64,000 nt of DNA from Candidatus Omnitrophota bacterium (lineage in GTDB: Bacteria > Omnitrophota > Gorgyraeia > Zapsychrales > Fredricksoniimonadaceae). A program made the position numbers and the translations under genes. The DNA is taken from positions 26,273 through 90,272 of the forward strand of contig JAGWOI010000001.1 in assembly GCA_028870995.1 (NCBI GenBank). The letters run 5' to 3'. Under the pieces are notes generated by a model. The model did no database searches, was not told the origin of the DNA, and saw nothing but the letters and a program-made list of their open reading frames with translations. This document shows, in pieces, positions 4,745-60,248 of the stretch (its first letter is position 1; each line of letters opens with the position of its first letter).

Positions 4745-4788
4745 AATTTCGTATTTTTATATTTCCTTCCTTCCCCTATACTTTAGAT

Positions 4789-5577: not shown

Positions 5578-5607
5578 AAACGCCGGTGGTATAATTGACC
5601 TTAAATT

Positions 5608-7316: not shown

Positions 7317-7436
7317 CCCCTCCGTCCTTCCTTAAGTGTTACTACGTACGGCCTTAAGTAGTTCACCCCATTCATATTTTCTCCTTTTGAGATTATCCTG
7401 TAAGTAGTTGAAGTGCCGTCTAAAAGGGTAGGATTT

Positions 7437-7814: not shown

Positions 7815-7829
7815 AGATTTCCCCAAAAA

Positions 7830-17177: not shown

Positions 17178-17179
17178 GT

Positions 17180-35061: not shown

Positions 35062-36114
35062 CTACGACAGATAACTGGGGAATTTGGTGAATTCCCTGGC
35101 GTATTCCTTGGTGATGATGCCGTTTTTGATTAACCCGGAGAGGCATTGTTCAAAAGTGTACATGCCCTCATCACCGGCGGTCATTTGCCCCCGGAGCTCA
35201 AGAAAAGCCCCCCGGCGGATGATATTGCGCACCGACAGGGTGGGGATTAGGACTTCCGTGGCCAAAACCCTGGCTTCTTTGCCAGGCAAGGGGATCAAGA
35301 TTTGGCCGACAACAGCGATGAGATTTTCCGCCATCTGGACACGGATCTGGTCCTGCTTGCCCGGCGGATAAACGTCCAGGATGCGGTTGAGGGATTCCAC
35401 GGCGTCCGGCGCGTGCAGGGTGGTCAATACCAGATGGCCGGTCTCAGCGGTCGTCAGGGCCATGGAAATGGATTCCGCATCACGGATCTCACCGACGACC
35501 ACCACATCGGGGTCCTGGCGCAGGGCCGACTTCAAGGCGCTGGCAAAGGAACTTGTATTGGTGCCCACCTCGCGTTGGATGATCAGGCTCTTGTGAGAAT
35601 CGTGCACGTATTCTATGGGGTCTTCGATCATGACGATTTTAAACGGCCTGGCCCGGTTGATCCAGTCCACCATGAAATTCAATGTGGTGGTTTTTCCGCT
35701 GCCGGCGGAGCCGCAAATAATGATAAACCCTTTGCGCCGGTGCGCCAGTTTTTCGATGACCGGCGGCAGGCCCAGTTGCCTGGCCGTGGGGATAACGGTG
35801 GGAAGGATACGGATATTGGCCGCGGGCCGCCCCTTTTCAAAATGGGCGTTAACGCGGAAATTAAAATCTTTGACGCCGATATAAGAAAGGTCCATGTCCT
35901 GGACCTCCATAAACATCTTGCGCTGGCTGTCGGTCATCATATCGAACAGGAGGTTCATGATATCTTCAGATTTTAACGGCGGCAGTTCGGAGGGGCGCAA
36001 TTCGCCGTGAATCCGGAATACGGGGCAACGGCCGGCCACCAGGTGGATATCGGACGCCTGGCGTTCAATGGCTTTTTGCAGCAGGGGTACAATCTTGGTG
36101 TAATCCATAGCCAT
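35062..36114 (-). CDS. pilT: Type IV pilus retraction ATPase PilT
   Basis: Walker A GSAGSGKTTTLN. PilT/PilU family length and Asp/His boxes. Confidence 0.85.
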   Translation of the reverse strand: MAMDYTKIVPLLQKAIERQASDIHLVAGRCPVFRIHGELRPSELPPLKSEDIMNLLFDMMTDSQRKMFMEVQDMDLSYIGVKDFNFRVNAHFEKGRPAANIRILPTVIPTARQLGLPPVIEKLAHRRKGFIIICGSAGSGKTTTLNFMVDWINRARPFKIVMIEDPIEYVHDSHKSLIIQREVGTNTSSFASALKSALRQDPDVVVVGEIRDAESISMALTTAETGHLVLTTLHAPDAVESLNRILDVYPPGKQDQIRVQMAENLIAVVGQILIPLPGKEARVLATEVLIPTLSVRNIIRRGAFLELRGQMTAGDEGMYTFEQCLSGLIKNGIITKEYAREFTKFPSYLS

Positions 36115-43394: not shown

Positions 43395-44004
43395 TGCCGT
43401 ACTTGCCTATTGTATAGGCTCAATTCCGGTGGCCTACATTTTCGGCCGCCTGCTCAAGAATATCGACATCCGCGAGCACGGTTCCGGGAATATGGGGGCC
43501 ACCAATGCCTTCCGGGTTTTAGGCAAAGGTCCGGGAACGGCCGTCCTGGTGCTTGATATCATCAAAGGCATTGTCCCGGTAACTGTTTTGGCCAGCGCCT
43601 TTGGTTTAAGCGACCCTTTATCACTGGTTATTATTGCCGTGGCCGCGGTGGCCGGGCATAACTGGACCATGTTCCTGGGATTTAAGGGCGGCAAGGGCAT
43701 GGCCACAAGCCTGGGAGTTTTGATCGGTCTGGCCGTTCAATTGCCCGGCCTCAGGATCATTTTGGGAGCAGCCACCCTGGTGTGGCTGGTGTTGTTCCTG
43801 GCCACCGGTTTTGTCTCCCTGGCTTCGATCGCTGCGGCTGTTTCCTTACCTATTCTTATGGTGGTTTATGAAGCGCCCTTTGCCATGAAGGTCATGGCCA
43901 TCGTCTTGTGTATTGTCATCGTTTTCCGCCACCGCCCCAACATCAAGAGACTCGCCAAAGGCCAGGAAAACCGTGTCCAGATTTTCCGCAAACGCTCTTT
44001 CTAG
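43369..44004 (+). CDS. plsY: Glycerol-3-phosphate acyltransferase PlsY
   Basis: MNPLFLVISAVLAYCIGSIP...HGSGNMGATN...GGKG PlsY motifs. Internal Met start overlapping the pgsA 3' end. Confidence 0.8.
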   Translation: MNPLFLVISAVLAYCIGSIPVAYIFGRLLKNIDIREHGSGNMGATNAFRVLGKGPGTAVLVLDIIKGIVPVTVLASAFGLSDPLSLVIIAVAAVAGHNWTMFLGFKGGKGMATSLGVLIGLAVQLPGLRIILGAATLVWLVLFLATGFVSLASIAAAVSLPILMVVYEAPFAMKVMAIVLCIVIVFRHRPNIKRLAKGQENRVQIFRKRSF

Positions 44005-44195
44005 CATCCTTTCTGTTATTCCATTTTCTTAAAAATCTCACAGACCAGCAAACACCCCTCGTTACCTCCCGACGGGAACACCTTCAGAAAGCGCTTTCTC
44101 AAAAGCCTTCCGGTGACCTTGTTTTCATAAGGGTGCGTGGTACACTTCAATTAAGAGGCCATAGCAGGTTGGAAACAGGAGAGGGAGAATTTCAA

Positions 44196-44588
44196 ATGGA
44201 TTTTGACGATATGATGTTAACAGGCAAGGAATCGCCTATGCGCGACATTACCCATAAACAGACCGCAATCTTGGATGGCCGGGGCAAGGTGATCACCTTG
44301 CGCGAACATACCGATGAAAAAGAGTGCGTCACGGACGTGCGTAAGAATTTCATTTATGTGGCTGCTGAAGTGCCTATGGAAGAAAGGCCGGCGGCGCCGA
44401 AGGTGTATATCAAGAAATCTTTCGACAGTGTCACCCGCGATGAGAAGTTTTTCTTCCGGGTCAAAGGCATCCTGTATGTCAATCATTGCCGGCGCGTCAT
44501 GCAGGTGGCGTATTGTCATACGCTCAGGATCAATTTGCACTGGAAAGTCAAGACATCGACTCCCAAGAAGACCGTGACTATGGCCTAG
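44196..44588 (+). CDS. Hypothetical protein (130 aa)
   Basis: Strong RBS GGAGAGGGAG 8 nt upstream of ATG 44196. No recognised domain. Convergent with the GT2 gene. Confidence 0.45.
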   Translation: MDFDDMMLTGKESPMRDITHKQTAILDGRGKVITLREHTDEKECVTDVRKNFIYVAAEVPMEERPAAPKVYIKKSFDSVTRDEKFFFRVKGILYVNHCRRVMQVAYCHTLRINLHWKVKTSTPKKTVTMA

Positions 44589-46270
44589 GAACCTTCGCGA
44601 TCTTCCTTCCGAAAGACCCTGCTATCTTTAGGCGGGGTTCTTTTTTTGTCCGTCACCCAGAATTCCAGGTATTGGCCCAGCATCAGGCGTGTTTGGGCGT
44701 GCAGGGCCGGCATGGCGCTGAAAAAGACCAGGATGAAAGGCACGGTCAGCCATTCAAAGGCATGGCCTATCTTGACCAGCCATCTGTAACGGATTTTTGT
44801 TTTCGGCAACAGGGACAGGGAAAGGATGATGCTTACGCAAACGGCCAGAAAGGCCAGGGAGAAAATGGTATTGGCGATATCGGGCACATTGTAATAGGCC
44901 ACCGACGAGGCGAACTCCTGGCGCGCGGATATGAGCGGCATCCAGCCGATGATCGAAAGGATGAAGCCGGAGGTGGACCAGGACCAATGACCCTCAAAGA
45001 GTTTGAAGCCGAGCCGCAGTTTGTCGTACAAGGGTATTCTTTTGGACCTTAAGAAGGCTCTCATCACGATGGGGAAATTTTCGACGCCCCATGCCCAGCG
45101 CTGTTTTTGTTTATAAACGCTTTGAAAGGTTTTCCACCAATTGTCCGAGGAGGCCACATCCATGGACAAGGTCACGTACATGGGGATGACCCGGTATTGA
45201 CCGTTGTAGTGGATATAGGCTTTCCAGAAAATGGCCGAATCGTCGGAGATCATGTCCACCGGCCAATAATCTACGTCCACAAGGGCCATAAAGCTCATGC
45301 TGTGCGAGGAGAAGGTGACCAGCTTTTCGGGATTGGTGCACTCGATGAGTTGATAAAAGGAGGAGCCTGTCTCCACCACGCGCGCAAAGCCGGGCACGTT
45401 CCATATATTGTTATGGTAAACCGGGATGGGCTGGAAACTGGCCTGCAGGCGTTGGGGGCAAACCATATAGTGATAGGTCAGGCAGAGAAAATAATTGGGG
45501 CTTACCACGGTGTCGGCATCGAAACAGGAGACGATCACCGCCTCGAAGGGGATGTGGTGCTCCTGGAAAAGTCTGGCCGCGTATTTGGCGGCATGAGTGA
45601 TATTGGCCCCCTTGACCCTGGCCTCGCCGGGCACAGCCGCCGGATGCAGGACGGTCACGCATTCCATAAAAACATTTTTGTATTTCTTTTCCAAGGCATA
45701 AACAGCATCCTGGATGGCAGGCTGCGCGCGTTCTTCCAGTGCAAAGACAACCACCAGTTGTTTAAGAGGGAAACGCTGGCGGCTGATGGCGTCAATGGCC
45801 GGTTCCAGGATATCGAGGCCTTCTTTTATGACGGGGAAGATGACCAGATGGTAGATGTCCTTGGACTTCGGCGGCAGGTTGCGGCTGGCCAGTAAATCAT
45901 CTAAATGGCGCAGGTGGATTTGATGAGAAAGGCGCTGGCGCCAGTGGCGGCCGAATTTTTTCATGGCGATGTCCCTTAAATAATGGGGAAGGTCATCAAT
46001 GCCGCGGATGCGCCGCATCCAGTCGGTGTTTTTTTCGATATTAAGCAGGGTGTAGGAAATGATCAGGAAAATGGTGGAATAGAGGATCCGCATGATCCAG
46101 GACAGGTAAAACGCGACTATCAGCACGGCGGCGATAAAGGGATAGAAAATGGACAAAAAGACCAGCCCCAGCAGGGTCATCCAGCTGACGGCCCCGGGCA
46201 GAATCTCCAGGAACCGCTGCAGCCTGGCCTGGCGGGGTTTCAGATTTTCCTTGGAATAGTGGAATTTCAT
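44585..46270 (-). CDS. Processive family-2 glycosyltransferase (cellulose-synthase-like exopolysaccharide synthase)
   Basis: Multi-TM protein with CFDADT (DxD), TED-like region and QKQRW (QxxRW) motifs characteristic of processive GT2 synthases. Confidence 0.75.
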   Translation of the reverse strand: MKFHYSKENLKPRQARLQRFLEILPGAVSWMTLLGLVFLSIFYPFIAAVLIVAFYLSWIMRILYSTIFLIISYTLLNIEKNTDWMRRIRGIDDLPHYLRDIAMKKFGRHWRQRLSHQIHLRHLDDLLASRNLPPKSKDIYHLVIFPVIKEGLDILEPAIDAISRQRFPLKQLVVVFALEERAQPAIQDAVYALEKKYKNVFMECVTVLHPAAVPGEARVKGANITHAAKYAARLFQEHHIPFEAVIVSCFDADTVVSPNYFLCLTYHYMVCPQRLQASFQPIPVYHNNIWNVPGFARVVETGSSFYQLIECTNPEKLVTFSSHSMSFMALVDVDYWPVDMISDDSAIFWKAYIHYNGQYRVIPMYVTLSMDVASSDNWWKTFQSVYKQKQRWAWGVENFPIVMRAFLRSKRIPLYDKLRLGFKLFEGHWSWSTSGFILSIIGWMPLISARQEFASSVAYYNVPDIANTIFSLAFLAVCVSIILSLSLLPKTKIRYRWLVKIGHAFEWLTVPFILVFFSAMPALHAQTRLMLGQYLEFWVTDKKRTPPKDSRVFRKEDREGS

Positions 46271-47349
46271 GGGTTTGTCCGTATGTCCGCCTTTAAAGCG
46301 TCAGGCACCGGGATGTTCAATAGGGGATGATAGGCCAAAAGCTGAACGGCGCACAGCCTCCCGTCATTATTCAAATAAAAAAGTTCTCCTGTTTTGGGGG
46401 AAAAATACATATTTGCCGATGGGTCGGATTGGGCTATATCGTACATCCGCGGTCCGCCGAAATTCTCCCGGGGATAAAGACGGATACGTCCCTCCTGACG
46501 GATGATCCAGTCATGGCCGTCGTTGATAAGGAATTTGTCGGGGTTATTTTTAACCCGTGTCCTGATGGTCCCGGGCAGGACTTCCCCCGGATAAATCGCT
46601 TTGTCATGGATATTGATGCGGTAAATGCGGGTCGGATAAATCGCGAAGATGTTGTTGTCTGTGTTGTCCCACTCAACCGAGGACGGAACCTCAGGGAAAA
46701 GGTCGCTGATATCTTCGATGACAGGAGGTTTTCCGTTCAGGTTGACCCATAGGAATTTTGTTTTATCTTTAAGCGCCGCCTGCAGCAAGATAAAGGGGCT
46801 GGACGGTTCGTAATACAGGTGTGTCAGCCGCCCCTGGGCGTAAATGGAATTGGCCACCAACAGCGGCGCTGGTCCGGTCTCCTGGCCCATGGAAATAACG
46901 TCTGTATCCGCAAGCAGGGGATTGGCGGCGATCAGGGTGTCCTGACCGGCCCGGAAGATGTTGGCATAGGTTTTGACGGCAATGACCTTTATGGGCCATT
47001 CCTGAGGTATCAGCAGGGCGTTGGCCACCGTGGCTTTATTGGCTTCAACCGGAATGTAGCGTTCCCAGTCCGTATAGCCGTTGAGCTCAATGCGGATGAA
47101 ATGGCTGCCGGGTGTCAGGTCCCTCAACACTGCCGGTGTTTTGGAACGGCTCAAACGGCCGTCGACATAGACTGCCGCGTCCGGCGGGTTGGTGGCGATG
47201 AAGATCAGCCCTGTCCTCACCAGACGCTGGGTCAGCGGATTGACGGCAAACCCCAGCATGTGCGCCACGATCAAGGGGCATAGAATAAGGTAGATAAGGG
47301 CAAAGAGATAAAAGACAAGCTTTCTAAGCCGGGGCATGAACCAAATCAT
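46267..47349 (-). CDS. Membrane-anchored PEGA domain protein, co-transcribed partner of the GT2 synthase
   Basis: N-terminal TM helix, PEGA-like segment (ATNPPDAAVYVDGRLSRSKTPAVLRDLTPGSHFIRIELNGY), then an uncharacterised domain of about 230 aa. ATGA overlap with the GT2 gene. Confidence 0.6.
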   Translation of the reverse strand: MIWFMPRLRKLVFYLFALIYLILCPLIVAHMLGFAVNPLTQRLVRTGLIFIATNPPDAAVYVDGRLSRSKTPAVLRDLTPGSHFIRIELNGYTDWERYIPVEANKATVANALLIPQEWPIKVIAVKTYANIFRAGQDTLIAANPLLADTDVISMGQETGPAPLLVANSIYAQGRLTHLYYEPSSPFILLQAALKDKTKFLWVNLNGKPPVIEDISDLFPEVPSSVEWDNTDNNIFAIYPTRIYRINIHDKAIYPGEVLPGTIRTRVKNNPDKFLINDGHDWIIRQEGRIRLYPRENFGGPRMYDIAQSDPSANMYFSPKTGELFYLNNDGRLCAVQLLAYHPLLNIPVPDALKADIRTNP

Positions 47350-47476
47350 AGCTCAGCTTTGCCCTTCAGGCAACGGATAAATTATAACGCGCTGGACAAT
47401 TAGCGACGAAAAGGTTATACTCTACTGATTCCCAAATAAGAGATATTTAATAGTACTGAAGCGGCGCTTTCCCTCT

Positions 47477-50272
47477 ATGTTTAAGACAGAAGATGCCCAA
47501 GCCGGTTCGAGACTTGTTCCCATCAAAATCATCTTCCCTTATGCGGTCTTATCACTAATATGGATCTATCTCTCCGATGAAATTACCGCCCTCCTTTTCA
47601 GGCACGCCCAGGACCTGAAATATGCCATCGATCTGAAGGCCACTTTTTATGTCTCGGTGACCTCCATTATCCTGTATGCCTTGTTTCGTGGCGCGACGTA
47701 CCGGCTCAGGGACAGCGAACGCAAATACCGCTATCTTTTCGAGAATTCCGCCATTTCTATTTTGGAAGAGGATTTTTCAGAGATCAGGAAATTCATCGAC
47801 CGGCAGCGGGCCCTGGGGATCCGGGATTGGCGGGAGTACTTTCAGAACAATCCCCAAACGGTACGAGAATGTGCCTCGTGGGTGAGGATCATGGATTCGA
47901 ACCAGGAAGGTTTGCGGCTGGCGGGCGTTGCCGAATCCAAAGATATGGTGGGCAAGACCCTCGATTATTATTTTACCGAGGATTCCTACGCGGACTTTAA
48001 AGAGCAGCTTATTGCCTTGGCCGAAGGCGCCACTCAATGGAATGGTGAGCGGTCCGCCCGCGCCAGCGAAGGCGGGACCAAGGCGTACATCTACCGGATG
48101 TCGGTGATGCCGGGGCATGAAAAAGACCTTTCCCGGGTTTTGGTCTCCCTGGTGGATGTCACGGCCAACAAGAGTAATGTCAAAACCATTGAACTTAAAG
48201 AACAGCGGCTAAGGCAGATCATCGATCTTGTCCCGCATTTCATTTTTGCCAAGGACATCGAAGGACGTTTTGTTCTGGTCAATAAAGCCATCGCGAACGC
48301 CTATGGGACGACGGTTGAGAACCTTACCGGGAAAAAAGACGAAGACTTCATCAAATCACGCGCCCAGGTCAGGCATTTTCTTAAGGATGATCTGGAGGTG
48401 ATGCAGTCGGGTAAATCCAAATTCATCCCGCTGGAGCCCATCACCAATGCCCAGGGCCAGACCAGGTTTTTGGCAACGACCAAAATACCCTTTACAGCTT
48501 CAGGCATCGATTCGCCCTGTGTCCTGGGCGTTGCCATCGACATTACCGAATACAAGCAGGCGGAAGAGGCCTTGGCCCAAGGCCAGCATTTTATCGAGAG
48601 CGTGTTGAACGCCACCCCCAATCTGATTTATGTTTACGATTTGATCTCCAAGAGTAACGTTTACTTCAACCGCGGCCTGCACGACCTGTTGGGTTACACC
48701 GAGCAGCAGATAGAAGCCATGGGGGGAGAGCTTTTTAACATGATCCTGCATCCCGACGATCATGCCTCCGTCAGGGAACACCATCAGATGCTAATACAGG
48801 ACGGCAAGGTGAGGGAAATCGAGTGCCGCATGAAGGATGCGGGAGGCCAATGGCGCTGGATGAGAAGCCGGGATGTGGTTTTCGCGCGTACGCCCCAGGG
48901 GGAAGCCTGGCAGATCTTAGGCTCGGCTGAGGATGTTACCGAGCATAAATTGCTTGAAAATAAATATTGGACACTTTCCTATTATGATGCGGTGACCACC
49001 TTCCCCAACCGCACCTTGTTTTACGAACGGGCCAACCTGGGGCTCTCCCACGCCAAGCGCAGCAACATCGCCTGCGCCGTCCTGTTCATTGACCTGGACC
49101 ACTTTAAAAACGTCAACGACACCCTGGGCCATACGCTGGGCGATGAGCTGCTTAAGGACACGGCGGTCAAACTTTCCGAATGTGTCCGTGAAATAGACAC
49201 CATTGCCCGCCTGGGGTCGGATAAATTCATTGTTTTTTTAAACGGCCTTGAAGACGCTCAGAGCGCCCAGCACATCGCCGAGCGTATCCGCGAGAAGTTG
49301 AATACCACCCGCACCATCTGCAGCCAGGAGCTTTTTGTCACCGCCACCATCGGGATCGCCACCTTTCCCAATGACGGCAGCACCCTGGAGGAGCTTCTGA
49401 AGAACGCGGACACAGCCATGAATGCGGCCAAGGACGCGGGCCGCAATGCCTTTTGTTTTTTTAACGGCACCATGAACGAGAAGGCCGTCACCCGCATGCA
49501 GATTGAAAAGGGTTTAAGGGGGGCGCTGGCCAAAAACGAGTTCAAGCTATATTACCAGCCGATCATCGGCGTGGCGGACGGAGGCGTGCGGGGCTTTGAA
49601 GTCCTGCTGCGCTGGTTTAAGGCCGACGGTACGCTGGTTTATCCTAATGATTTCATCGGAATCGCGGAAGAAACCGGGCTCATCATCGGTATCGGCGAAT
49701 GGGTGTTGAAAGAGGCATGCCGCATGGGGAAGAAATGGCATGACATGGGGTTTGATGAGCTGGTCATGTCCGTCAATATTTCCGTCGTTCAGTTGAGGAC
49801 CCCGGCCATCATGGGAGCCATTAAAAAAGCCTTGGAAGAGACCGGGTTTCCGGCCCATTTCCTTGAAATTGAGGTCACGGAAAGCATTTTTATCAGCGCC
49901 TTCGACGCTTCCATCGGGGTGCTCCAAAAAATCCGCGATATGGGGGTACGGGTGGCGCTGGATGATTTCGGGACGGGCTATTCCTCGTTAAGCCATTTGC
50001 AGCGCCTGCCGATCACCACCCTGAAGATCGACCGGTTTTTCATCAAGGAGCTGATGAACGAAGGCATCGAAATGGCCATGACCGCCACCATCATCGAACT
50101 GGCCCACAACCTCAATCTCGGCGTTGTTGCCGAGGGCGTCGAGCACCAACAGCAGCTCAAGAGCCTGGCCAAGGAGAATTGCGATTATTTCCAAGGCTTT
50201 CTTTTCGGCAAACCCATGCCCGAGGACCAGGCCATGGCCTTCCTTAAGGATAACAGCAGCCCTTCCGTTTAA
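47477..50272 (+). CDS. Membrane PAS/PAC sensor with degenerate GGDEF (GSDKF) and EAL domains, probable c-di-GMP phosphodiesterase
   Basis: N-terminal TM segments and several PAS folds. GGDEF-domain motif RLGSDKF (non-canonical). EAL-domain motifs EVLLRW, DDFGTGYSSL, KIDRFF, EGVE and QGFLFGKP. Confidence 0.8.
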   Translation: MFKTEDAQAGSRLVPIKIIFPYAVLSLIWIYLSDEITALLFRHAQDLKYAIDLKATFYVSVTSIILYALFRGATYRLRDSERKYRYLFENSAISILEEDFSEIRKFIDRQRALGIRDWREYFQNNPQTVRECASWVRIMDSNQEGLRLAGVAESKDMVGKTLDYYFTEDSYADFKEQLIALAEGATQWNGERSARASEGGTKAYIYRMSVMPGHEKDLSRVLVSLVDVTANKSNVKTIELKEQRLRQIIDLVPHFIFAKDIEGRFVLVNKAIANAYGTTVENLTGKKDEDFIKSRAQVRHFLKDDLEVMQSGKSKFIPLEPITNAQGQTRFLATTKIPFTASGIDSPCVLGVAIDITEYKQAEEALAQGQHFIESVLNATPNLIYVYDLISKSNVYFNRGLHDLLGYTEQQIEAMGGELFNMILHPDDHASVREHHQMLIQDGKVREIECRMKDAGGQWRWMRSRDVVFARTPQGEAWQILGSAEDVTEHKLLENKYWTLSYYDAVTTFPNRTLFYERANLGLSHAKRSNIACAVLFIDLDHFKNVNDTLGHTLGDELLKDTAVKLSECVREIDTIARLGSDKFIVFLNGLEDAQSAQHIAERIREKLNTTRTICSQELFVTATIGIATFPNDGSTLEELLKNADTAMNAAKDAGRNAFCFFNGTMNEKAVTRMQIEKGLRGALAKNEFKLYYQPIIGVADGGVRGFEVLLRWFKADGTLVYPNDFIGIAEETGLIIGIGEWVLKEACRMGKKWHDMGFDELVMSVNISVVQLRTPAIMGAIKKALEETGFPAHFLEIEVTESIFISAFDASIGVLQKIRDMGVRVALDDFGTGYSSLSHLQRLPITTLKIDRFFIKELMNEGIEMAMTATIIELAHNLNLGVVAEGVEHQQQLKSLAKENCDYFQGFLFGKPMPEDQAMAFLKDNSSPSV

Positions 50273-50349
50273 CTCCAGCGCCTTACCGGTATCCGGGAAA
50301 AAGACGCGAGCCAATTGAATTATAAGCTGTGAAGTATTAGAATAAAAAA

Positions 50350-51675
50350 ATGAGTAAAGGGCGTATTTTAATTGGGGTTATTTTATTCGGGTGTTTTACC
50401 GGCCGGGCCATGGCGCAGGGGAATGATTTGACTCCGGTACGCCTGACGCTTAAAGAGGCCTTACACAGTGTCAGCACGGAGAACCTGCAAGTGCTGATGG
50501 CCAATGCCCGCCTGCAGCAAGCCATTGCCCGTATAGGCCAGGCACAGTCCAGTTTATTGCCTCATTTGGAGGGTGAAGTCAGCGGCGGCCGCCAGACCGT
50601 TGACCTGCGCTCTGAAGGCTTAACGCTGCCCGGCATCAGTCCGCATGAGGGTCCCTTTAATAATTTTGATGCCAGGCCGCGGGTGACCATGGCGATCTTT
50701 GACCTGTCTTCTTTGGCCAGATTTCAGGCTGCCCAAAAAGGCGAGAAACTTTCCGAAGCTCAGTTGCAGAAGACCCGGGAAGATGTGCTGGCCCTGGTGG
50801 CGGACCTCTTCGTTGATGCCCAGCGCAAGCAGCAGACGGTCAAGCTGCTACACACCCTGTTGGAAAAGGACCGGATGGCCTATCAGTTAAGCCGTGACAA
50901 TCTTAATCAGGGTACCGGCACGCTGTTGGATTCGAGCAAATACAAATCCGATTTGGACCAGACGCGGTATTTACTGGCCCAGGCCGAACTTCAGGCTGAG
51001 TCTGCCGATATGGACCTGGAGGCGGCGCTGCAATTGCCTTTGGGCAAACCCTTGGCCCTTGTCGATGACGATGGTTTTCTGCACATTTTGGAAAAAAGCG
51101 CCGAGGGTCATTTTAAAGGCGGGTCCAATGCCGACGTGGACATGGCTTCCTCGCAATTGGAGGCCAGCAAGGCCGACCAAAAAAGCGCCATGGCGGATTT
51201 CCTGCCGAGAATATCAGGCAGCGCGGATTACGGGCGTTCCGGCGCCTCTCCCCAGCACGGCAGCAATACGTATTTCGTCGGCGTGAAGGCGACGGTCCCC
51301 ATTTGGGAAGGCGGGGCGAACCAGGCCCAGTTGAAGGAAGCCAAGGGCCGGGTGTCGGAGGCCAGGGAAAATCTCCGGGATTCCCTCCAGCAGCAGGAAG
51401 TCAATGTCAGGAAGGCCCGGCTCGAAATTAAAGAAGCGGACAATTTAAGACGGGCCAAACGTCAGCAGCGCCGGACCGCCCAGCGCGGCCTTTTGGTGGC
51501 GCTTCATGCCCAGCAGGTGGGCAGCGGCACGGTTTTAGCCGTGATGGAGGCCAAGGCTCAGTTGGCCCTGGCGGAAGATGGGTACAACGAGGCCCAGGCC
51601 ACCTGGGTCATGGCGCATATCGGCCTTCTTCATGCCCAAGGCCGGCTGAGGGATTTAATCAGACAGGAAAAATAA
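50350..51675 (+). CDS. TolC-like outer membrane efflux protein
   Basis: Signal peptide. Two repeats of coiled-coil-rich OEP pattern. Length 441 aa. Confidence 0.7.
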   Translation: MSKGRILIGVILFGCFTGRAMAQGNDLTPVRLTLKEALHSVSTENLQVLMANARLQQAIARIGQAQSSLLPHLEGEVSGGRQTVDLRSEGLTLPGISPHEGPFNNFDARPRVTMAIFDLSSLARFQAAQKGEKLSEAQLQKTREDVLALVADLFVDAQRKQQTVKLLHTLLEKDRMAYQLSRDNLNQGTGTLLDSSKYKSDLDQTRYLLAQAELQAESADMDLEAALQLPLGKPLALVDDDGFLHILEKSAEGHFKGGSNADVDMASSQLEASKADQKSAMADFLPRISGSADYGRSGASPQHGSNTYFVGVKATVPIWEGGANQAQLKEAKGRVSEARENLRDSLQQQEVNVRKARLEIKEADNLRRAKRQQRRTAQRGLLVALHAQQVGSGTVLAVMEAKAQLALAEDGYNEAQATWVMAHIGLLHAQGRLRDLIRQEK

Positions 51676-52346
51676 TGCGACTTTTGATCGGCATATTCGC
51701 CGCCTTGTTGATCGCAGGCTGCTCCCAACCAAAAGGTATTACGGAGATGACGTTCTCGGGCACCATGGAGCTGACCGAGCACGTCCTGGGTGCCAAGGTG
51801 GCGGGACGCCTTACGACCCTGAGCGTTGATGAAGGAGACCATGTCAGCAAGGGGCAGCTTTTGGCGACGCTGGACCGTTTTGAGCAGGATAAAAAGGATT
51901 ACGAACGCCTCCGGGTCCTTTATCAAAGCGGAGGCGCTGACCAGCAATCCCTGGAACATGCCCGCCTGAAGATGGAGGACCAGGAGATCGTCTCGCCCTT
52001 GGACGGGGTGGTGCTGGTCAAGGATGTTGAGACAGGCGAAACCCTTCCTGAAGGCGGGGGGGTGGTTGTCATCGGCGATATCAAGGACCAATGGATCAAG
52101 GTCTACGTGTCCGAAAATCTCGTCCATCAGTTGACTCTCGGGCAGCCGGCGGACATCAAGGTGGACGGCGCCTTGAAGCCTTACAGGGGCCGCATCACCT
52201 TTATCGCCGCCAAAGCCGAATTCACCCCGCGCAACGTGCAGACACCTGAGGAACGCGCCACCCAAACCATCGCCGTCAAGATTACGGTCGATCATCCCGA
52301 TGAAAATCTTCATGCCGGTGTTTCGGCTGACGTGAAATTCTTATGA
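51675..52346 (+). CDS. Short HlyD-family membrane-fusion lipoprotein
   Basis: Lipobox LIAGC. Biotin-lipoyl-like and beta-barrel segments typical of periplasmic adaptor subunits, but only 223 aa with no long coiled-coil hairpin. Confidence 0.6.
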   Translation: MRLLIGIFAALLIAGCSQPKGITEMTFSGTMELTEHVLGAKVAGRLTTLSVDEGDHVSKGQLLATLDRFEQDKKDYERLRVLYQSGGADQQSLEHARLKMEDQEIVSPLDGVVLVKDVETGETLPEGGGVVVIGDIKDQWIKVYVSENLVHQLTLGQPADIKVDGALKPYRGRITFIAAKAEFTPRNVQTPEERATQTIAVKITVDHPDENLHAGVSADVKFL

Positions 52347-52359
52347 TGAGGTAGGCGCC

Positions 52360-53301
52360 ATGCCGGACATCGCCATCAGCACAGATCATCTGACCAGGAG
52401 ATTCGGAAAGTTCACGGCGGTTGACGGCATTTCTTTCGAAATCCCCTACGGTTCCATTTTCGGGTTTTTAGGAGCCAACGGCGCCGGTAAGAGCACCACC
52501 ATCCGCATGCTGTGCGGTATCCTGGCGCCTACCAGCGGCGAGGGAAAGGTGGGCGGCTTTGACGTGCAAACACAGCCGGAACAGATCAAGACCGTGATCG
52601 GTTACGTGTCGCAGCGTTTCAGCCTTTACGCGGATTTAAATGTCGCCGAGAACCTTAACTTTTACGGCCGCATCTACGGACTTGAAGGCAGCGCCCTGGC
52701 CGGCCGCATTAAAGAAGTTTTGACCCTCACGGGCTTGGCCCCATTCCAAAGACGCCTGGCCGGCGATCTTTCCGGCGGCATGAAGCAAAAACTGGCGGTG
52801 GCCAACGCCATCCTGCATAAGCCCAAGATTATTTTCCTTGATGAACCGACCGCCGGGCTCGATCCCTTGTCCCGCCGGGGAATATGGGAGCTGTTGTACC
52901 AGTTGGCGGAATCCGGAACGTCCTTATTCGTGACCACCCATTATATGGAAGAGGCGGAACGCTGCAACACCATTGCCTTTATCAGCCAAGGGAGAATTTT
53001 GAAGATCGGCCGTCCAGCCGAGCTGAAGGAGGAACTTAAGGGGCAGATCCTGGAGGTGGCGGCCCGGCCTTTGATGAAGGCGTCCCATGTTTTTTCAGAG
53101 GTGGAGGGGGTGCATGGTGTCACCGTCTACGGTACCACGTTGAATTTAAACGCGGCGGATCCCAAGGCCGTCGAGGAACGCGTCAGGCAGGCCGCGGCCA
53201 GGGAAGGCATTCAAGTGGCTTCCATTAAACCCATCGCGGCCTCGCTGGAAGATGTGTTTTCCGATCTGGATCTAAAGAAGGTCAAGAATGCGCAACATTA
53301 A
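52360..53301 (+). CDS. ABC transporter ATP-binding protein (ABC-2 type)
   Basis: Walker A GANGAGKST. Signature LSGGMKQK. Walker B IIFLDEPT. Confidence 0.85.
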   Translation: MPDIAISTDHLTRRFGKFTAVDGISFEIPYGSIFGFLGANGAGKSTTIRMLCGILAPTSGEGKVGGFDVQTQPEQIKTVIGYVSQRFSLYADLNVAENLNFYGRIYGLEGSALAGRIKEVLTLTGLAPFQRRLAGDLSGGMKQKLAVANAILHKPKIIFLDEPTAGLDPLSRRGIWELLYQLAESGTSLFVTTHYMEEAERCNTIAFISQGRILKIGRPAELKEELKGQILEVAARPLMKASHVFSEVEGVHGVTVYGTTLNLNAADPKAVEERVRQAAAREGIQVASIKPIAASLEDVFSDLDLKKVKNAQH

Positions 53302-54391
53302 GGCCATTGCTTTTAAAGAATTCATCCATATCCTGCGCGACCGCCGGACCCTGATGCTCATCATCCTTATGCCCATGATGCAGCTGATGATCTACGGTTA
53401 CGGCATCAATACCGATGTCAAACACTTGTCCACCTATGTCTATGATCAGGACCGCACCTATTTAAGCCGCCGCCTGGTGGACGCCTTCACTCAAAGCCAG
53501 TATTTTAACGTCACTTTTCATGCCGATTCCCTTCAGGAAACCTACAAGGCCCTGGACAAAGGGCTGGCCAAGGCCGTACTGGTCATCCCGCCAAACTTCA
53601 CCGGCGACCTGTTGAAGAAAAAGGGTGCGCAATTGCAGATGATCATCGACGGCACGGACTCCACCCCGGCCACCGTGGCGCTTAATTCCAGCCAGGCCAT
53701 CGTCAATGCCTTTATGCAAAACGAGCATCTGATCCCTGTGGCGGTGCTGCCCATCGATTTCCGGCCCAGGCTCTGGTACAACCCTGATCTTAAAAGCACC
53801 TACTTCATGCTTCCGGGGCTGGTGGGATTGGTGCTGCAGTTTTTAGTGCCCATGATCACGGCCTCGGCCATCGTGCGCGAGAAGGAAAGGGGCAATATTG
53901 AGCAATTATTGGTCACCCCTATCAAACCCTATGAATTGATCCTGGGGAAAATCCTTCCCTACATCGCCATTGGCGTTATCATCGCCGCCAGCATCATCAC
54001 GGTCATGCATCTGTTGTTCGTCGTACCCATTCACGGCAGTGTGGTGACCTTGTTTTTGATGACCTTGATCTTCCTGACGGTGTGTTTGGGGATAGGATTG
54101 TGGGCCTCAACGGTGGCGGAAAACCAGCAGCAGGCGGCCCAGATCGTCATGTTCTTTGCCATGCCTTCGATCCTGCTGTCGGGTTTCATCTTTCCCAGGG
54201 AAGCGATGCCCTTATGGGTGCACCATATCGGTTATTTTATCCCCATGACCTATTTTTTGATCATCGTGCGGGGCATCATCCTAAAAGGCCTGGGGTTTGT
54301 CGATTTGATCGGCCAGGTCTGGCCGATGCTGCTGATGGCCGTTCTGGTCCTCGTATTCAGCATCAAGCGGTTTGCCAAGAGAATGACCTAA
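53288..54391 (+). CDS. ABC-2 family transporter permease
   Basis: N-terminal TM helix, large periplasmic loop and a C-terminal 5-TM bundle, the usual ABC-2 topology. Overlaps the ATPase gene by 14 nt. Confidence 0.75.
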   Translation: MRNIKAIAFKEFIHILRDRRTLMLIILMPMMQLMIYGYGINTDVKHLSTYVYDQDRTYLSRRLVDAFTQSQYFNVTFHADSLQETYKALDKGLAKAVLVIPPNFTGDLLKKKGAQLQMIIDGTDSTPATVALNSSQAIVNAFMQNEHLIPVAVLPIDFRPRLWYNPDLKSTYFMLPGLVGLVLQFLVPMITASAIVREKERGNIEQLLVTPIKPYELILGKILPYIAIGVIIAASIITVMHLLFVVPIHGSVVTLFLMTLIFLTVCLGIGLWASTVAENQQQAAQIVMFFAMPSILLSGFIFPREAMPLWVHHIGYFIPMTYFLIIVRGIILKGLGFVDLIGQVWPMLLMAVLVLVFSIKRFAKRMT

Positions 54392-56172: not shown

Positions 56173-57330
56173 ATGAGGGTTGCGCTTTTTTCCTGGGAGG
56201 CCGTTCATTCGGTGTTTGTCGGTGGCATTGGTTTGCATGTCACCGAACTGGCCTGCGCCCTGGAACGCAAAGGGCATGAAGTCCATGTCTTCACCCGCAT
56301 GGCACGGCCCGATCATCCTCATTACGAATGCATCCACGGCGTTCATTATCACCGCTGCCCCTTTGCTCCCCATCCTGATTTCATTGAAGAAGTAACTAAT
56401 ATGTGCCGTTCCTTCGTGGACAGTTTTCTGGCCACTGAAAACCATATCGGCCATTTCGATGTGATCCACGGGCATGACTGGCTCACCGCCCAGGCCCTGG
56501 AATGGATCAATAAGGCCAGACGCCATAAAACTATTTATACCATCCACTCGACCGAATACGGGCGGTGCGGCAATAATTTTTTTGAAGGCAACTCCAAGCG
56601 CGTCCGGCATTTGGAGTGGCTGGGCTCCTATTGCGCGGACAGGGTCATCACCGTTTCCAATGCCCTGAAGAATGAGGTCAAGTGGATCTACAATATCCCG
56701 GAAGATAAGACGGACGTGGTTTATAACGGTATCCGCTGTTCTGATTTCGACAGCTGGGTCGATCCGGGGGATGTCCGGCGCCGCTACGGCATCGGTCCCA
56801 TGGATCCCATGGTGCTGATCGTGGGACGCATGGTTTATCAGAAGGGGCCGGACCTGTTGGTTGCCGCCATTCCGTATGTATTGCAGTACTATCCGCATGC
56901 CAAATTTGTCTTTGCCGGTGACGGCGAAATGCGGGGCGAGATCGAGGGGCTTGCCGGCAGGTTGCATGTATCTCATGCCACCCGCTTCCTGGGCAAGCAG
57001 GGCGGTTTGGCGCTGAGGGACCTTTTTAAATCCACGGATTGCGTCTGCGTGCCCAGCCGCAACGAGCCTTTCGGCATCGTGATCCTTGAGGCCTGGAGCG
57101 CCGGCAAACCCGTGGTGGCCACTGTCAACGGCGGCCCTAATGAAATCATCTGGCATGATGTCAACGGCCTTAAAATCCGGGATAATCCGGAATCCATTGC
57201 TTGGGGTATCGGCACCCTTTTCCATGATTTTGACCATGCCAGGTGGATGGGGAATAACGGCCGCATGACCGTCGAGACTGCTTTCTCCTGGGATGTCATC
57301 GCCGATGAGACCTTGCAGGTATATTATTAA
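56173..57330 (+). CDS. GT-B (GT4-like, group 1) glycosyltransferase, probable alpha-glucan/glycogen synthase by context
   Basis: N-terminal MRVALFSWEAVHSVFVGGIGLHVTELA typical of GT4/GT5 glucosyltransferases. C-terminal E-x7-E-like region (EPFGIVILEA). Confidence 0.65.
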   Translation: MRVALFSWEAVHSVFVGGIGLHVTELACALERKGHEVHVFTRMARPDHPHYECIHGVHYHRCPFAPHPDFIEEVTNMCRSFVDSFLATENHIGHFDVIHGHDWLTAQALEWINKARRHKTIYTIHSTEYGRCGNNFFEGNSKRVRHLEWLGSYCADRVITVSNALKNEVKWIYNIPEDKTDVVYNGIRCSDFDSWVDPGDVRRRYGIGPMDPMVLIVGRMVYQKGPDLLVAAIPYVLQYYPHAKFVFAGDGEMRGEIEGLAGRLHVSHATRFLGKQGGLALRDLFKSTDCVCVPSRNEPFGIVILEAWSAGKPVVATVNGGPNEIIWHDVNGLKIRDNPESIAWGIGTLFHDFDHARWMGNNGRMTVETAFSWDVIADETLQVYY

Positions 57331-57364
57331 CCCGAAATGGAATGCGGAGGCTTAGAACGCCTTT

Positions 57365-58495
57365 ATGTCACCTGTCATTGACTCAACCGAGCTTCCGGCC
57401 TTAAGACGCCGCACCCGTTGCATCCTTGTCTCAAGGGACCCTAATACCCTTTGGGCTTATTGGGACCATACCCCGTCAGATAGGCAACAACGGACGTCGC
57501 GCCTCCAATCCCAATCGAAAAATATACGGTTTCTCCTGCGTGTTTATGATGTGACCCAGGTGAAATTCAACGGGGCCAACGCCAACCATGTTTGGGACAT
57601 GGAGGTGGGGCCTGGTGCAAAAAGCGCCTATATCAATGTATGGCAGGACAACGCGGATTATTGCGTGGAATACGGCCTGACCACCGGTAAAAAACATTTT
57701 ATGGCCCTGGCCCGTTCCAATATCGTGCGCGCACCGTCCAGGACCCCTTCGAAGAGGGATGACTTGATATGGCAGGACATCAAATTCCCCAAAAAATCGC
57801 CGGCCTACATTCAGGAAGATTTAAAGAAAGATATTAAGAGCCATTATCATGGCCTGATACAGCAGCAAAGTAAAGGAAGCTTCACTTCCGAAGGCCAGGC
57901 GCACGTTGAACGGCTAATAAAAGAGAAATATTCCCCCCAAGGCGAAGGGTTGCAAGCCAAATCAGGCCGGCGGCCCAGGGTTTATCATTTAACCGCCCAG
58001 GACATCCGGACTTATTATTTGAGATTTTTTCACCGCAAATCACGGCATCCCCGCGGCCTAAGGAGCCTTGTGGCAGGAATTCCCATTGGCATTTCCTGGC
58101 AAAAGGTCAGGCCGTTGATCAGTACTGTTGAATTGATAAAACACCTTCATCCGGCGGGCGCCTCCGAAAAACAAGCGCCGGGGGCCAGTGAAAACTTCGG
58201 AGGTGTCCAAGGCAGCGAAGGCCGTTTGAAGCAAAGAAAGTTTTTCTTTGAGATCTGGACCGAACTGATCGTCCATGGCCGCACCGAACCTGATGCCGCC
58301 GTGTGGCTGAACCAGAAAGGGGTTAAATTGAATCCCGATGGGACCTTCACGCTGCACTATGCCTTGCCTGACGGAGAGATTCCTTTGAAATTCGTTGCCC
58401 AATCAGCCGATGGGGTGGAGCAGCGTCATATCTATACGCGGGTAGAAAGGGAAAACACGGTTTATTTCCCCAAGATATTGAAAGCCTATGAATAA
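57365..58495 (+). CDS. DUF4912-like protein
   Basis: N-terminal CILVSRDPNTLWAYWD resembles the DUF4912 signature. This family often accompanies GH57 genes. Confidence 0.45.
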   Translation: MSPVIDSTELPALRRRTRCILVSRDPNTLWAYWDHTPSDRQQRTSRLQSQSKNIRFLLRVYDVTQVKFNGANANHVWDMEVGPGAKSAYINVWQDNADYCVEYGLTTGKKHFMALARSNIVRAPSRTPSKRDDLIWQDIKFPKKSPAYIQEDLKKDIKSHYHGLIQQQSKGSFTSEGQAHVERLIKEKYSPQGEGLQAKSGRRPRVYHLTAQDIRTYYLRFFHRKSRHPRGLRSLVAGIPIGISWQKVRPLISTVELIKHLHPAGASEKQAPGASENFGGVQGSEGRLKQRKFFFEIWTELIVHGRTEPDAAVWLNQKGVKLNPDGTFTLHYALPDGEIPLKFVAQSADGVEQRHIYTRVERENTVYFPKILKAYE

Positions 58496-60248
58496 AAATC
58501 CGAAAGGCTATTTGAGCCTTGTCCTTCACGCGCACCTGCCGTTTGTCCGGCATCCCGAGGAGAATTATTTCCTCGAGGAAAACTGGCTGTTCGAGGCCAT
58601 CACCGAGACCTATATTCCTTTGTTAAGGGTCTTCGAGGGGCTGGTGCGCGACGGGGTGGACTTCAACATCACCATGTCCGTGAGCCCGACGCTGGCGGCC
58701 ATGTTTACGGACCGCCTGCTGCAGGACCGTTATGTGCGCCATATCAATAAGCTCATTGAGCTGGCTGAAAAGGAACTCGACCGCACCGCCTATGATCCGC
58801 AGTTCCACGGGCTGGCGCTTATGTATTATCACCGTTTTCTCGATGCCCGCGATATCTTCGTCAACCAATACCAGAAGAACCTTATTAATGCATTCAAGAA
58901 ATTCCAGGAAGCTGGGTGTCTGGAGATCATTACCTGTTGCGCCACCCATGGCTTTTTGCCCAATTTGAATATAAGCGAATCCGCGGTTCGGTCCCAGATC
59001 GACATCGGGGTGGACCAGTACCGCCATCATTTCGGGGTGGATCCCAAGGGGATATGGCTTCCCGAGTGCGGCTTTTATCCGGGGCTGGACCGCTGGCTCA
59101 AGAAAGCAGGGATCAGCTATTTCTTTTGCGATTCACACGGGATCATGAATGCCGATCCGCAGCCGCAATACGGTGTCATGGCCCCGGTATATTGCCCCAG
59201 CGGGGTGGCGGCTTTTGGCCGTGATTGGGAAAGCTCCAAGCAGGTTTGGAGTTCCAAGGAGGGCTATCCCGGCGATCCTGATTACCGGGAATATTACCGC
59301 GATATCGGCTTTACGCTGGATTTTGAATACATTAAGCCTTATATCCATCCCATGGGGATCCGTCATAATACCGGGTTCAAATATTGGCGCATCACCGGCG
59401 ACACTGAGGCCAAGGCGCCGTATCAGCCGGATTGGGCTAGGAACAAGGCGGCTGTCCATGCCGGGAACTTCATGTTCAACCGCCAGAAACAGATCGAACA
59501 CCATTTTTTTCAAATGGACCGCAAGCCCATTGTCGTGGCCCCGTATGATGCCGAATTGTTCGGCCATTGGTGGTTTGAGGGCCCGCAATGGATCGATTTT
59601 TTATGCCGTAAGATCTTTTATGACCAGGACACCATCCAGATGACAACACCCTCCCAATATTTAAGGGAGTACACCACCAACCAGGTGGCCATGCCCAGCC
59701 AGTCGAGCTGGGGGTATAAAGGTTTTGGCGAATTCTGGCTTGAAGGCTGCAATGATTGGATCTATCCTTATCTTCATGAGGCCGCGGAGTTGATGGAAGA
59801 ACTGGCCAGGGAGAATGCGTCCTTGATCCAGGGAAACTTCGGCCGGAACCCCTTGAAGGCGGCCTTGCGCTACCGCGCCCTTAACCAGGCCGCGCGCGAG
59901 CTGCTGCTGGCCCAAGCCAGCGACTGGCCCTTTATCATGAAGGCCGGGACGATGGTGGCTTACGCCGAGAAAAGGGTCAAAACGCATATCAACCGTTTCT
60001 GGCGCCTGTACAACAGTTTGAAAGAGGATGCCATCGATGAGCCCTGGCTTAAGGAAATCGAATCCAGGGACAATATTTTTGGGGACACGAATTGCGTCCA
60101 GTATTATTTGGAAACGCGCAAAGCGGCGCGCAAGCCTGTGAAAACGTCCCAACCCCGAAAGCTCTTGAAGCAGGCCGCTCATTTGAAAAATGAGGTAGCG
60201 GCACGAAAGGAGGTCAATCATGAACGACATCATCGACAATTTGCCTAA
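58488..60248 (+). CDS. GH57-family 1,4-alpha-glucan branching enzyme / AmyC-like
   Basis: LSLVLHAHLPFVRHPEENYFLEENWLFEAITETYIPLL matches the N-terminus of GH57 branching enzymes. About 586 aa. Confidence 0.8.
   Translation: MNKNPKGYLSLVLHAHLPFVRHPEENYFLEENWLFEAITETYIPLLRVFEGLVRDGVDFNITMSVSPTLAAMFTDRLLQDRYVRHINKLIELAEKELDRTAYDPQFHGLALMYYHRFLDARDIFVNQYQKNLINAFKKFQEAGCLEIITCCATHGFLPNLNISESAVRSQIDIGVDQYRHHFGVDPKGIWLPECGFYPGLDRWLKKAGISYFFCDSHGIMNADPQPQYGVMAPVYCPSGVAAFGRDWESSKQVWSSKEGYPGDPDYREYYRDIGFTLDFEYIKPYIHPMGIRHNTGFKYWRITGDTEAKAPYQPDWARNKAAVHAGNFMFNRQKQIEHHFFQMDRKPIVVAPYDAELFGHWWFEGPQWIDFLCRKIFYDQDTIQMTTPSQYLREYTTNQVAMPSQSSWGYKGFGEFWLEGCNDWIYPYLHEAAELMEELARENASLIQGNFGRNPLKAALRYRALNQAARELLLAQASDWPFIMKAGTMVAYAEKRVKTHINRFWRLYNSLKEDAIDEPWLKEIESRDNIFGDTNCVQYYLETRKAARKPVKTSQPRKLLKQAAHLKNEVAARKEVNHERHHRQFA

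Follow-up and report, generated by a model that had tools for sequence, protein, structure and literature searches.

A conserved PEGA-GT2 gene pair of Omnitrophota, a candidate two-subunit glycan synthase with a propeller-like partner

Glycosyltransferases of family 2 (GT2) are inverting enzymes, and several membrane-integrated representatives act together with a second subunit. PgaC and IcaA need a small membrane partner, PgaD or IcaD, which consists of transmembrane helices only, and PgaCD binds cyclic di-GMP (c-di-GMP) at its subunit interface; class I hyaluronan synthases (HAS) need no partner. A broader arrangement, in which a synthase is combined with a non-homologous partner and a glucanase, recurs in the BcsA-B-Z, CslA-GlxA-CslZ and CcsA-B-Z systems (PMC11022532). 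The present study concerns 64,000 nt of a Candidatus Omnitrophota genome (GCA_028870995.1, JAGWOI010000001.1, positions 26,273-90,272 of the forward strand; this whole analysed stretch is called the window), and within it a gene pair encoding a membrane-anchored PEGA-domain protein, hereafter the partner, and a GT2 enzyme. An earlier note on this DNA had presented the pair as a c-di-GMP-linked exopolysaccharide module with a phosphodiesterase-controlled synthase. The reading that we consider probable, while leaving appreciable room for others, is that the pair encodes a two-subunit inner-membrane glycan synthase that is close to a housekeeping feature of Omnitrophota, and that the neighbouring EAL-domain gene is independent of it. 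Literature searches on PEGA proteins and synthases and on Omnitrophota glycosyltransferases or exopolysaccharide, together with papers on Omnitrophota genomes, yielded no description of a PEGA-GT2 module.

The pair occupies the reverse strand, partner first and synthase second, which is unlike the order of the Bcs genes:

46267..47337, reverse strand: partner (PEGA) gene, with its probable start at 47337; the longest open reading frame (ORF) reaches 47349
44585..46270, reverse strand: GT2 gene, 561 aa, encoding two N-terminal transmembrane helices, a cytosolic GT-A domain, a QKQRW interface helix and C-terminal transmembrane/interface helices
46267..46270, reverse strand: 4-nt overlap of the PEGA stop and the GT2 start, from the ORF coordinates

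The partner is 356-360 aa long, and a 356-aa database entry together with the homologues points to the second Met (47337) as its start. All four ORFs on which the earlier note was built (GT2, PEGA, PAS-GGDEF-EAL and a 130-aa ORF) are present where it had placed them. The top database matches of the GT2 and PEGA proteins are 100% identical entries from metagenome-assembled genomes of Candidatus Omnitrophica, and a second, independent assembly (GCA_028865175.1, 8.6 kb) has an identical gene arrangement, the PAS-GGDEF-EAL gene included, so that the arrangement is not an assembly artefact.

Relatives were collected by scanning species-representative genomes with a 14-sequence family alignment, which found at least 586, and neighbourhoods were counted over 84 loci, in 83 of which the GT2 was detectable; of the best 80 nearly all belong to Omnitrophota, among them the complete genome of Candidatus Velamenicoccus archaeovorus LiM. 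In 81 of the 83 loci the GT2 gene is directly preceded by a co-oriented PEGA gene, the two exceptions being contigs that end within 460 nt; overlap or abutment of the two genes is common to most related loci. Since in the window the last 4 nt of the PEGA gene are also the first 4 nt of the GT2 gene, co-transcription with translational coupling is plausible, in line with the earlier note's description of a co-transcribed pair; these observations support the two genes being a functional pair. The GT2 is 63-83% identical to its synteny-sharing relatives, about level with PlsY, PgsA and LepB of the same genomes, and the partner is only 30-59% identical to the same set. Apart from the PEGA gene, and a hydrolase gene considered below, no phylum-wide conserved neighbour was seen among the 84 loci. 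The PEGA-GT2 pair is, on the reading favoured here, a conserved and near-housekeeping feature of Omnitrophota. The GT2 family is large, with 3199 word-index matches in sequence databases and, in a library clustered at 50% identity, 1571 clusters at E <= 1e-3 and 308 at E <= 1e-30, and its members align over their full length down to about 27% identity.

Giant ORFs, truncated where the loci end and ~1,900 to 4,000 aa or longer, stand directly beside the pair and on its strand in several Omnitrophota loci (L002/L004, 1-6411; L036, 9796-17635; L046, 9879-16692; L048, 9971-17638; L070, 9135-14774). They may correspond to the 'giant genes' discussed for Velamenicoccia, and their adjacency is not phylum-wide.

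The GT2 has a single and weak Pfam match, to Glyco_trans_2_3 (32.4 bits against a cut-off of 27), and no NCBIfam model matches it, the PEGA protein or the 130-aa protein. Its homology to known synthases is visible only by hhalign and fold comparison, profile-profile comparison being what detects its likeness to BcsA. With hhalign, the GT2 family matches BcsA of E. coli at 96.5% probability and PgaC at 96.6%, and the motifs align one for one: VKGAN of the GT2 with HAKAGN of BcsA (the KAGN equivalent), SFQPIP with QTPHHF, TFSSHS with FFCGSC (the FFCGS equivalent), FDADT with FDCDH of BcsA and IDGDA of PgaC, ISDDSA with VTEDAH and ITEDID, and QKQRW with QRIRW and QRLRW. PgaC (441 aa) is likewise a compact GT2, and its alignment with the family runs nearly from end to end, the C-terminal transmembrane region included. 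The motifs map to the reverse strand as follows:

45509..45523, reverse strand: FDADT, the DxD metal/nucleotide-sugar motif, GT2 residues 250-254
45233..45250, reverse strand: ISDDSA, equivalent of the TED catalytic base, GT2 residues 341-346
45095..45109, reverse strand: QKQRW, the QxxRW acceptor-binding motif, GT2 residues 388-392
44645..44662, reverse strand: FWVTDK, an FxVTxK-like motif in the basic C-terminal tail, GT2 residues 537-542

Residues D251, D344, Q388 and W392 are near-invariant in an alignment of 51 family sequences, and the catalytic-base motif follows the DxD motif by about 90 residues, as it does in processive GT2 synthases. The pattern [FYW]xV[TS]x[KR] is kept in 29 of the 51 family members, with close variants in most of the others, and FWVTDK compares with FNVTAK at residue 617 of E. 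coli BcsA. The corresponding gating-loop motif of HAS is a different one. FxVTxK is described as the gating-loop motif of cellulose synthases (PMC11022532), and FWVTDK may act as a gating loop; it lies at the extreme C-terminus rather than between interface helix 3 (IF3) and transmembrane helix 7 (TM7), is left unaligned by hhalign, and has a predicted local distance difference test score (pLDDT) below 50 in the structure model.

In that AlphaFold2 model (pLDDT 75.6, predicted template modelling score 0.80), two long N-terminal transmembrane helices are followed by a cytosolic helical linker, the GT-A domain, the interface helix that carries QKQRW (residues 378-408) and C-terminal transmembrane/interface helices. 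Foldseek against the PDB returned PcManGT, hyaluronan synthases, BcsA and Chs1 at E ~1e-8, with low template modelling scores of 0.3-0.4. The paired fold-comparison values were 19.1 / 356 for Xenopus HAS1, 19.0 / 308 for PcManGT, 16.8-17.1 / 323-352 for BcsA, 16.7 / 355 for CvHAS, 15.1 / 367 for CesA and 14.4 / 337 for chitin synthase; DPMS (14.8 / 213), ArnC (14.2 / 219) and GtrB (13.6 / 203) match in the GT-A domain only. The GT2 was also considered as a polyprenyl-phosphate sugar synthase of the DPMS/GtrB/ArnC type, which has a short PF00535 domain, a C-terminal transmembrane hairpin and no QxxRW motif, and was rejected as not conforming to that type. Because the DPMS, ArnC and GtrB alignments are confined to the GT-A domain, the GT2 is placed as a predicted, very divergent member of the membrane-integrated, synthase-like branch that contains the cellulose, hyaluronan, poly-N-acetylglucosamine and chitin synthases. 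The earlier note had called it a processive synthase from its DxD and QxxRW motifs; both motifs and the synthase-like branch stand, and processivity itself would be expected from this placement rather than observed.

The class I HAS (Xenopus HAS1, Chlorella virus HAS) share with this enzyme the succession of two N-terminal transmembrane helices, GT-A domain, interface helices and C-terminal transmembrane helices, at an identity of only 9-12%. PcManGT of Pyrobaculum calidifontis (PDB 6yv7) is comparable as a minimal cellulose-synthase-like membrane GT2, and differs in being archaeal, 346 aa long, devoid of the two N-terminal transmembrane helices and without a known partner; from its PDB title and general knowledge, it is an enzyme of the N-glycan pathway rather than a polymer exporter.

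The partner matches the Pfam PEGA model (PF08308) over residues 47-111 (E 5.9e-13, 49 bits against a gathering cut-off of 20.8). A PDB sequence search with the partner gave no match, and its C-terminal ~230 residues are without a match in Pfam, NCBIfam or PDB sequences, in keeping with the earlier note, which had left this part unassigned; a confident AlphaFold2 model (pLDDT 86) now adds a fold, comprising a transmembrane helix, a PEGA beta-sandwich and a beta-propeller-like domain. Numbered on the 360-aa ORF, the anchor spans residues ~4-31 and the PEGA sandwich ~34-112, and residues ~120-336 are predicted to form a propeller-like domain of roughly five blades. Basic residues can be read in the sequence just before the transmembrane helix and, because of these, the positive-inside rule indicates that the bulk of the partner should face the periplasm. 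Across the phylum the partner is usually 470-490 aa long (494 aa in V. archaeovorus, with two or three extra blades), and the window's clade therefore has a shortened propeller, which in some relatives is shorter still. Its invariant positions are concentrated in the part that comprises the membrane-proximal segment and the PEGA domain, which suggests that this part is a conserved contact surface. As the earlier note had stated, the partner is not BcsB, PgaB or PelD, and Pfam and NCBIfam give no BcsB match. Remote homologues with the same anchor, PEGA and propeller layout (P0202 and P0205) were considered as being paired with the GT2 family and were ruled out, an S41 protease gene adjoining them.

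A hydrolase gene (product of ~350-390 aa) is present in 19 loci and lies directly 3' of the GT2 gene in 18 of them, often with a 4-nt overlap. Its product has a signal peptide. The Pfam matches of the product are GH42, GH10 and GH5, and in PDB sequences it matches clan GH-A enzymes, PslG being one of them; it is of the TIM-barrel type, and an ENEP motif and a further invariant Glu are retained. By analogy, loci with this gene match the pattern of synthase, non-homologous partner and glycanase that is known from BcsABZ and CslA-GlxA-CslZ.

The closest parallel would be the CslA-GlxA-CslZ system of Streptomyces especially, besides BcsA-BcsB-BcsZ. In the available part of PMC11022532, the Streptomyces system has a GT2 that is translationally coupled to an extracytoplasmic partner with an N-terminal transmembrane anchor and a central beta-propeller, and a glucanase gene nearby; the same text presents GlxA as a 645-aa radical copper oxidase and reports no PEGA domain for it, gives the reversed gene order (cslA, then glxA), and reports PilZ-like elements for CslA, which this GT2 lacks. 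With the Bcs system the locus shares a membrane GT2 with KAGN, DxD, FFCGS, TED and QxxRW equivalents and an FxVTxK-like motif, a membrane-anchored, predicted periplasmic partner that is probably co-transcribed and, in part of the GT2 family, a periplasmic glycanase gene. It differs in that BcsA binds c-di-GMP through a C-terminal PilZ domain, which is absent from this GT2; BcsB has a C-terminal anchor and CBD/flavodoxin-like domains, whereas this partner has an N-terminal anchor followed by PEGA and propeller; BcsZ belongs to GH8 and the hydrolase seen here is a clan GH-A TIM barrel; and a BcsC-like porin has no counterpart in the module. The Pga system is also unlike it in having PgaA and PgaB for outer-membrane export and deacetylation.

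Patescibacteria, Doudnabacteria for example, have a sister branch of the GT2 with about 35% identity. The gene upstream of the GT2 there encodes a protein of 105-119 aa with three transmembrane helices, unrelated to PEGA and resembling in kind the small partner needed by PgaC and IcaA; that it could be a reduced PEGA protein was ruled out by an hhalign probability of 0.2%. In five Doudnabacteria-like loci (L087-L091, ~2000-8900), a gene for an unknown protein of 540-590 aa and a PMT_2 gene are divergent from the three-helix gene, which is followed by the GT2 and Glycos_transf_4 genes, a context that may represent a distinct envelope glycosylation system.

On the favoured reading, that of a two-subunit glycan synthase, the GT2 would polymerise a beta-linked glycan from a nucleotide sugar at its cytosolic GT-A domain and, in the manner of BcsA, hyaluronan synthase, PgaC and chitin synthase, move it through the inner membrane. 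The partner would be translated from one mRNA with the GT2 in a coupled manner, its transmembrane helix and PEGA domain would pack against the synthase, and its propeller would receive or guide the emerging polymer in the periplasm, a role filled elsewhere by BcsB, GlxA and CcsB. Where the clan GH-A hydrolase is present, it would trim or release the polymer, like BcsZ and CslZ.

Several observations weigh against this. PDB sequence searches with the GT2 and with the 51-sequence family hidden Markov model gave no match, and no experimentally characterised homologue of the GT2 is detectable by sequence. The GT2 model is of only moderate confidence and is poor over residues 286-343, which belong to the active site, and it shows about 4-5 transmembrane helices, fewer than channel-forming synthases have. 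PcManGT, which does not secrete a polymer, equals HAS as a fold match. The Glycos_transf_4 gene and the divergent GT-C (PMT_2) gene beside the Patescibacteria GT2 would also fit lipid-linked sugar chemistry. Genes for an outer-membrane porin or a TPR protein are lacking from the conserved module across the 84 loci, and the hydrolase gene is missing from about 75% of loci, no homologue of it being found in the 64-kb window.

One alternative is a variant of the synthase reading, in which no exopolysaccharide is secreted and the product, like the osmoregulated periplasmic glucans, stays in the periplasm or envelope. Because the conserved module is without an outer-membrane exporter, we treat this as a serious possibility, albeit not the expected outcome. 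The predicted location of partner and hydrolase alike in the periplasm would agree with it, and conservation at housekeeping level is more in keeping with a structural or physiological component of the envelope than with a biofilm matrix that is facultative. A precedent exists in OpgG-OpgH, where a gene for a periplasmic protein is followed by a Glyco_trans_2_3 GT2 gene, but the pair shows no homology to OpgG/OpgH (no MdoG match in Pfam or NCBIfam), and an exporter could be unlinked, an AlgE-like porin gene lying 14 kb off in the window.

The main rival, although rather unlikely, is a GT2 that does not polymerise but transfers a single sugar or a few sugars to a lipid (polyprenyl phosphate, a lipid-linked oligosaccharide, diacylglycerol or a carotenoid), in which case the PEGA-propeller protein would serve the lipid-linked sugar in the periplasm as acceptor, chaperone or transferase partner. 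The low number of transmembrane helices and the lack of an outer-membrane exporter would be accommodated by such an activity, as would the Patescibacteria context, whose three-helix protein, PMT_2 and Glycos_transf_4 resemble three-component lipid-linked glycosylation systems. The earlier note had held that a best match to a non-processive enzyme would speak against a synthase, and on this point the comparison ends in a tie, PcManGT scoring like a hyaluronan synthase. Set against this, motifs of the QxxRW, TED-like, FFCGS-like and FxVTxK-like kinds characterise processive synthases, DPMS, GtrB and ArnC match no more than the GT-A domain, and the coupled secreted glycoside hydrolase of 19 loci implies a periplasmic glycan polymer as its substrate. 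In the window, plsY and pgsA, which serve lipid synthesis, also adjoin the GT2 gene, as carotenoid genes do in some loci, but these neighbourhoods are each limited to single clades and the carotenoid cluster has a GT2 of its own.

The remaining question concerns the genes that surround the pair in the window, which are:

47477..50272, forward strand: PAS x3-GGDEF-EAL gene, 931 aa, encoding a membrane-anchored product (Pfam, NCBIfam, MorA alignment)
50350..54391, forward strand: efflux operon of OEP (TolC-like), HlyD-like, ABC ATPase and ABC-2 permease genes (ORFs; Pfam labels on identical or related loci)
44196..44588, forward strand: 130-aa gene, function unassigned, downstream of plsY, with homologues in 7 loci

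The 931-aa protein has two N-terminal hydrophobic/transmembrane helices, three PAS folds, a GGDEF domain (E 3.9e-45) and an EAL domain (E 3.3e-66) according to Pfam. It shares the GGDEF-EAL tandem and the EAL residues with MorA (PDB 4rnh; 420 aligned residues, E 4e-108), from which its N-terminal sensor part, with the two transmembrane helices and three PAS folds, differs. Where MorA has GGDEF this protein has GSDKF (residues 580-584), which makes cyclase activity unlikely; the RxxD site five residues upstream is intact (REID, 571-574). All catalytic and metal positions of the EAL domain are conserved relative to MorA (EVLLR at 708-712, SVNIS, EIEVTES, DDFGTG, LKIDR, AEGVE, FQGF). The MorA alignment thus bears out what the earlier note had said of both domains, a GGDEF motif degenerated and likely non-catalytic and an EAL domain apparently intact, and the protein probably degrades c-di-GMP as an active, signal-gated phosphodiesterase.

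The link of this protein to the synthase, however, was not borne out. Pfam and NCBIfam detect no PilZ, GGDEF or MshEN domain in either protein of the pair (PilZ none at E <= 0.1). The GT2 ends about 35 residues past its last hydrophobic helix and, because nothing follows the C-terminal helices in the AlphaFold2 model, it has no PilZ domain; the receptor that the earlier note had suggested looking for in the synthase C-terminus, a PilZ domain or an I-site, was thus not detected there. A non-canonical c-di-GMP site may nevertheless be present in the synthase. An Rfam scan of 43500-51000 gave no family, c-di-GMP riboswitches included. Within 8 kb of the pair, an EAL gene is absent from all the other 83 loci, two of the 84 have an unrelated GGDEF-only gene and one has a PAS protein. 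In the closest relatives (L006, L007 and L014; GT2 76-83% identical) about 100-200 nt separate the PEGA and OEP genes, and elsewhere this slot between pair and OEP operon holds a MarR gene (L001, 6240-6680; L083, 6358-6795) or a gene for a 231-aa membrane protein with several transmembrane helices (L009, 6202-6897). The occupants of this slot, which is apparently a small hotspot of regulator turnover, always share the direction of the OEP-HlyD-ABC operon, and so does the PAS-GGDEF-EAL gene of the window, downstream of which the operon begins after 77 nt on the same strand. Being absent from the other loci and aligned with the efflux operon, the PAS-GGDEF-EAL gene reads best as an independent, species-specific gene that landed in a variable slot, and it appears to be a chance neighbour rather than a dedicated regulator of the synthase.

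That it locally controls the pair through c-di-GMP degradation, as part of a c-di-GMP-gated exopolysaccharide module, is accordingly very improbable: the divergent genes have a common intergenic region of 139 nt (127 nt from the longest PEGA ORF) with a promoter-like site, the EAL domain and RxxD I-site are kept, the arrangement repeats in the second assembly, GGDEF-only genes do occur at two loci, and many synthase-dependent exopolysaccharide systems are under c-di-GMP control (established knowledge; PMC11022532), but receptor domain and riboswitch are lacking, the slot is empty or otherwise occupied in the closest relatives, the gene is co-directional with the efflux operon, and a phylum-wide pair at housekeeping level is unlikely to depend on a regulator of a single species. 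For annotation, an adjoining GGDEF-EAL gene is insufficient grounds for calling a synthase c-di-GMP regulated.

The OEP-HlyD-ABC operon was considered as the missing exporter, compare the tripartite exporter of cyanobacterial cellulose systems, and was rejected: it adjoins the pair only within the window's own clade, and it is a complete efflux system that has its own regulators in relatives.

The 130-aa ORF was described in the earlier note as a gene with a strong ribosome-binding site, convergent to the synthase gene. A GGAGAGGGAG run, resembling a ribosome-binding site, lies shortly upstream of its ATG, and homologues in 7 related loci, all of the window's clade (E 1e-35 to 1e-66), establish it as a real gene; its 3' end overlaps the convergent GT2 stop by 4 nt. 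The protein has no match in Pfam or NCBIfam, and the PDB gave only insignificant actin matches (E about 0.2). The gene is always on the plsY side, with insertions between it and the GT2 gene of L009 and L083, and it probably travels with plsY and is not part of the module. Just past its stop, a terminator-like hairpin with a T-run (44615-44639, forward strand) falls within the GT2 coding sequence of the other strand, in its non-conserved, extended C-terminal tail.

Elsewhere in the window, an AlgE-like outer-membrane porin gene (29354-30670, forward strand; Pfam Alginate_exp, E 6e-64) and a gene for a CE4 polysaccharide deacetylase of 538 aa (Polysacc_deac_1; 33427-35043, forward strand), with ABC transporter genes between them, lie 9-15 kb from the pair; they could in principle serve an exported glycan, and this linkage is not seen in the other loci. 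A lone PilT/T2SSE-type secretion ATPase gene (350 aa; 35062-36114, reverse strand) stands among biosynthetic genes. Two multihaem c-type cytochrome genes follow each other on the forward strand, the first (15540-17177, 545 aa) encoding a fusion of a cytochrome b561-like membrane domain and an MtrC/MtrF-like domain and the second (17156-19957) a 933-aa protein, which suggests extracellular or periplasmic electron transfer in this genome. A glycogen-type alpha-glucan cluster (56173-63782, forward strand) comprises genes for a GT4/GT5 glycogen-synthase-like protein, a DUF4912 protein, a GH57 branching-enzyme-like protein, a 550-aa protein without a Pfam match and a GH13 GlgB-like protein with CBM48.

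What is new here is the class of partner, PEGA with propeller, and a very divergent clade of synthases; the general design is already familiar. GT2 synthases have repeatedly recruited unrelated partners (BcsB, GlxA, CcsB, PgaD), and the combination of PEGA and propeller would add another. As a tentative extension, which we think possible rather than likely, the pair may be a core envelope system of Omnitrophota that makes an unknown beta-glycan as a regular structural or physiological constituent of the envelope, with the PEGA-propeller protein as a new class of co-synthase and the Patescibacteria as a sister branch that uses another, small membrane partner. The cell biology and host attachment of Omnitrophota, whose cells are ultra-small and often host-dependent, are almost unexplored, and the phylum-wide conservation of the pair together with its new partner is of note for specialists in polysaccharide secretion and in Omnitrophota. 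A GT2 conserved at housekeeping level in this uncultivated phylum points to an unknown envelope or surface polymer of Omnitrophota.

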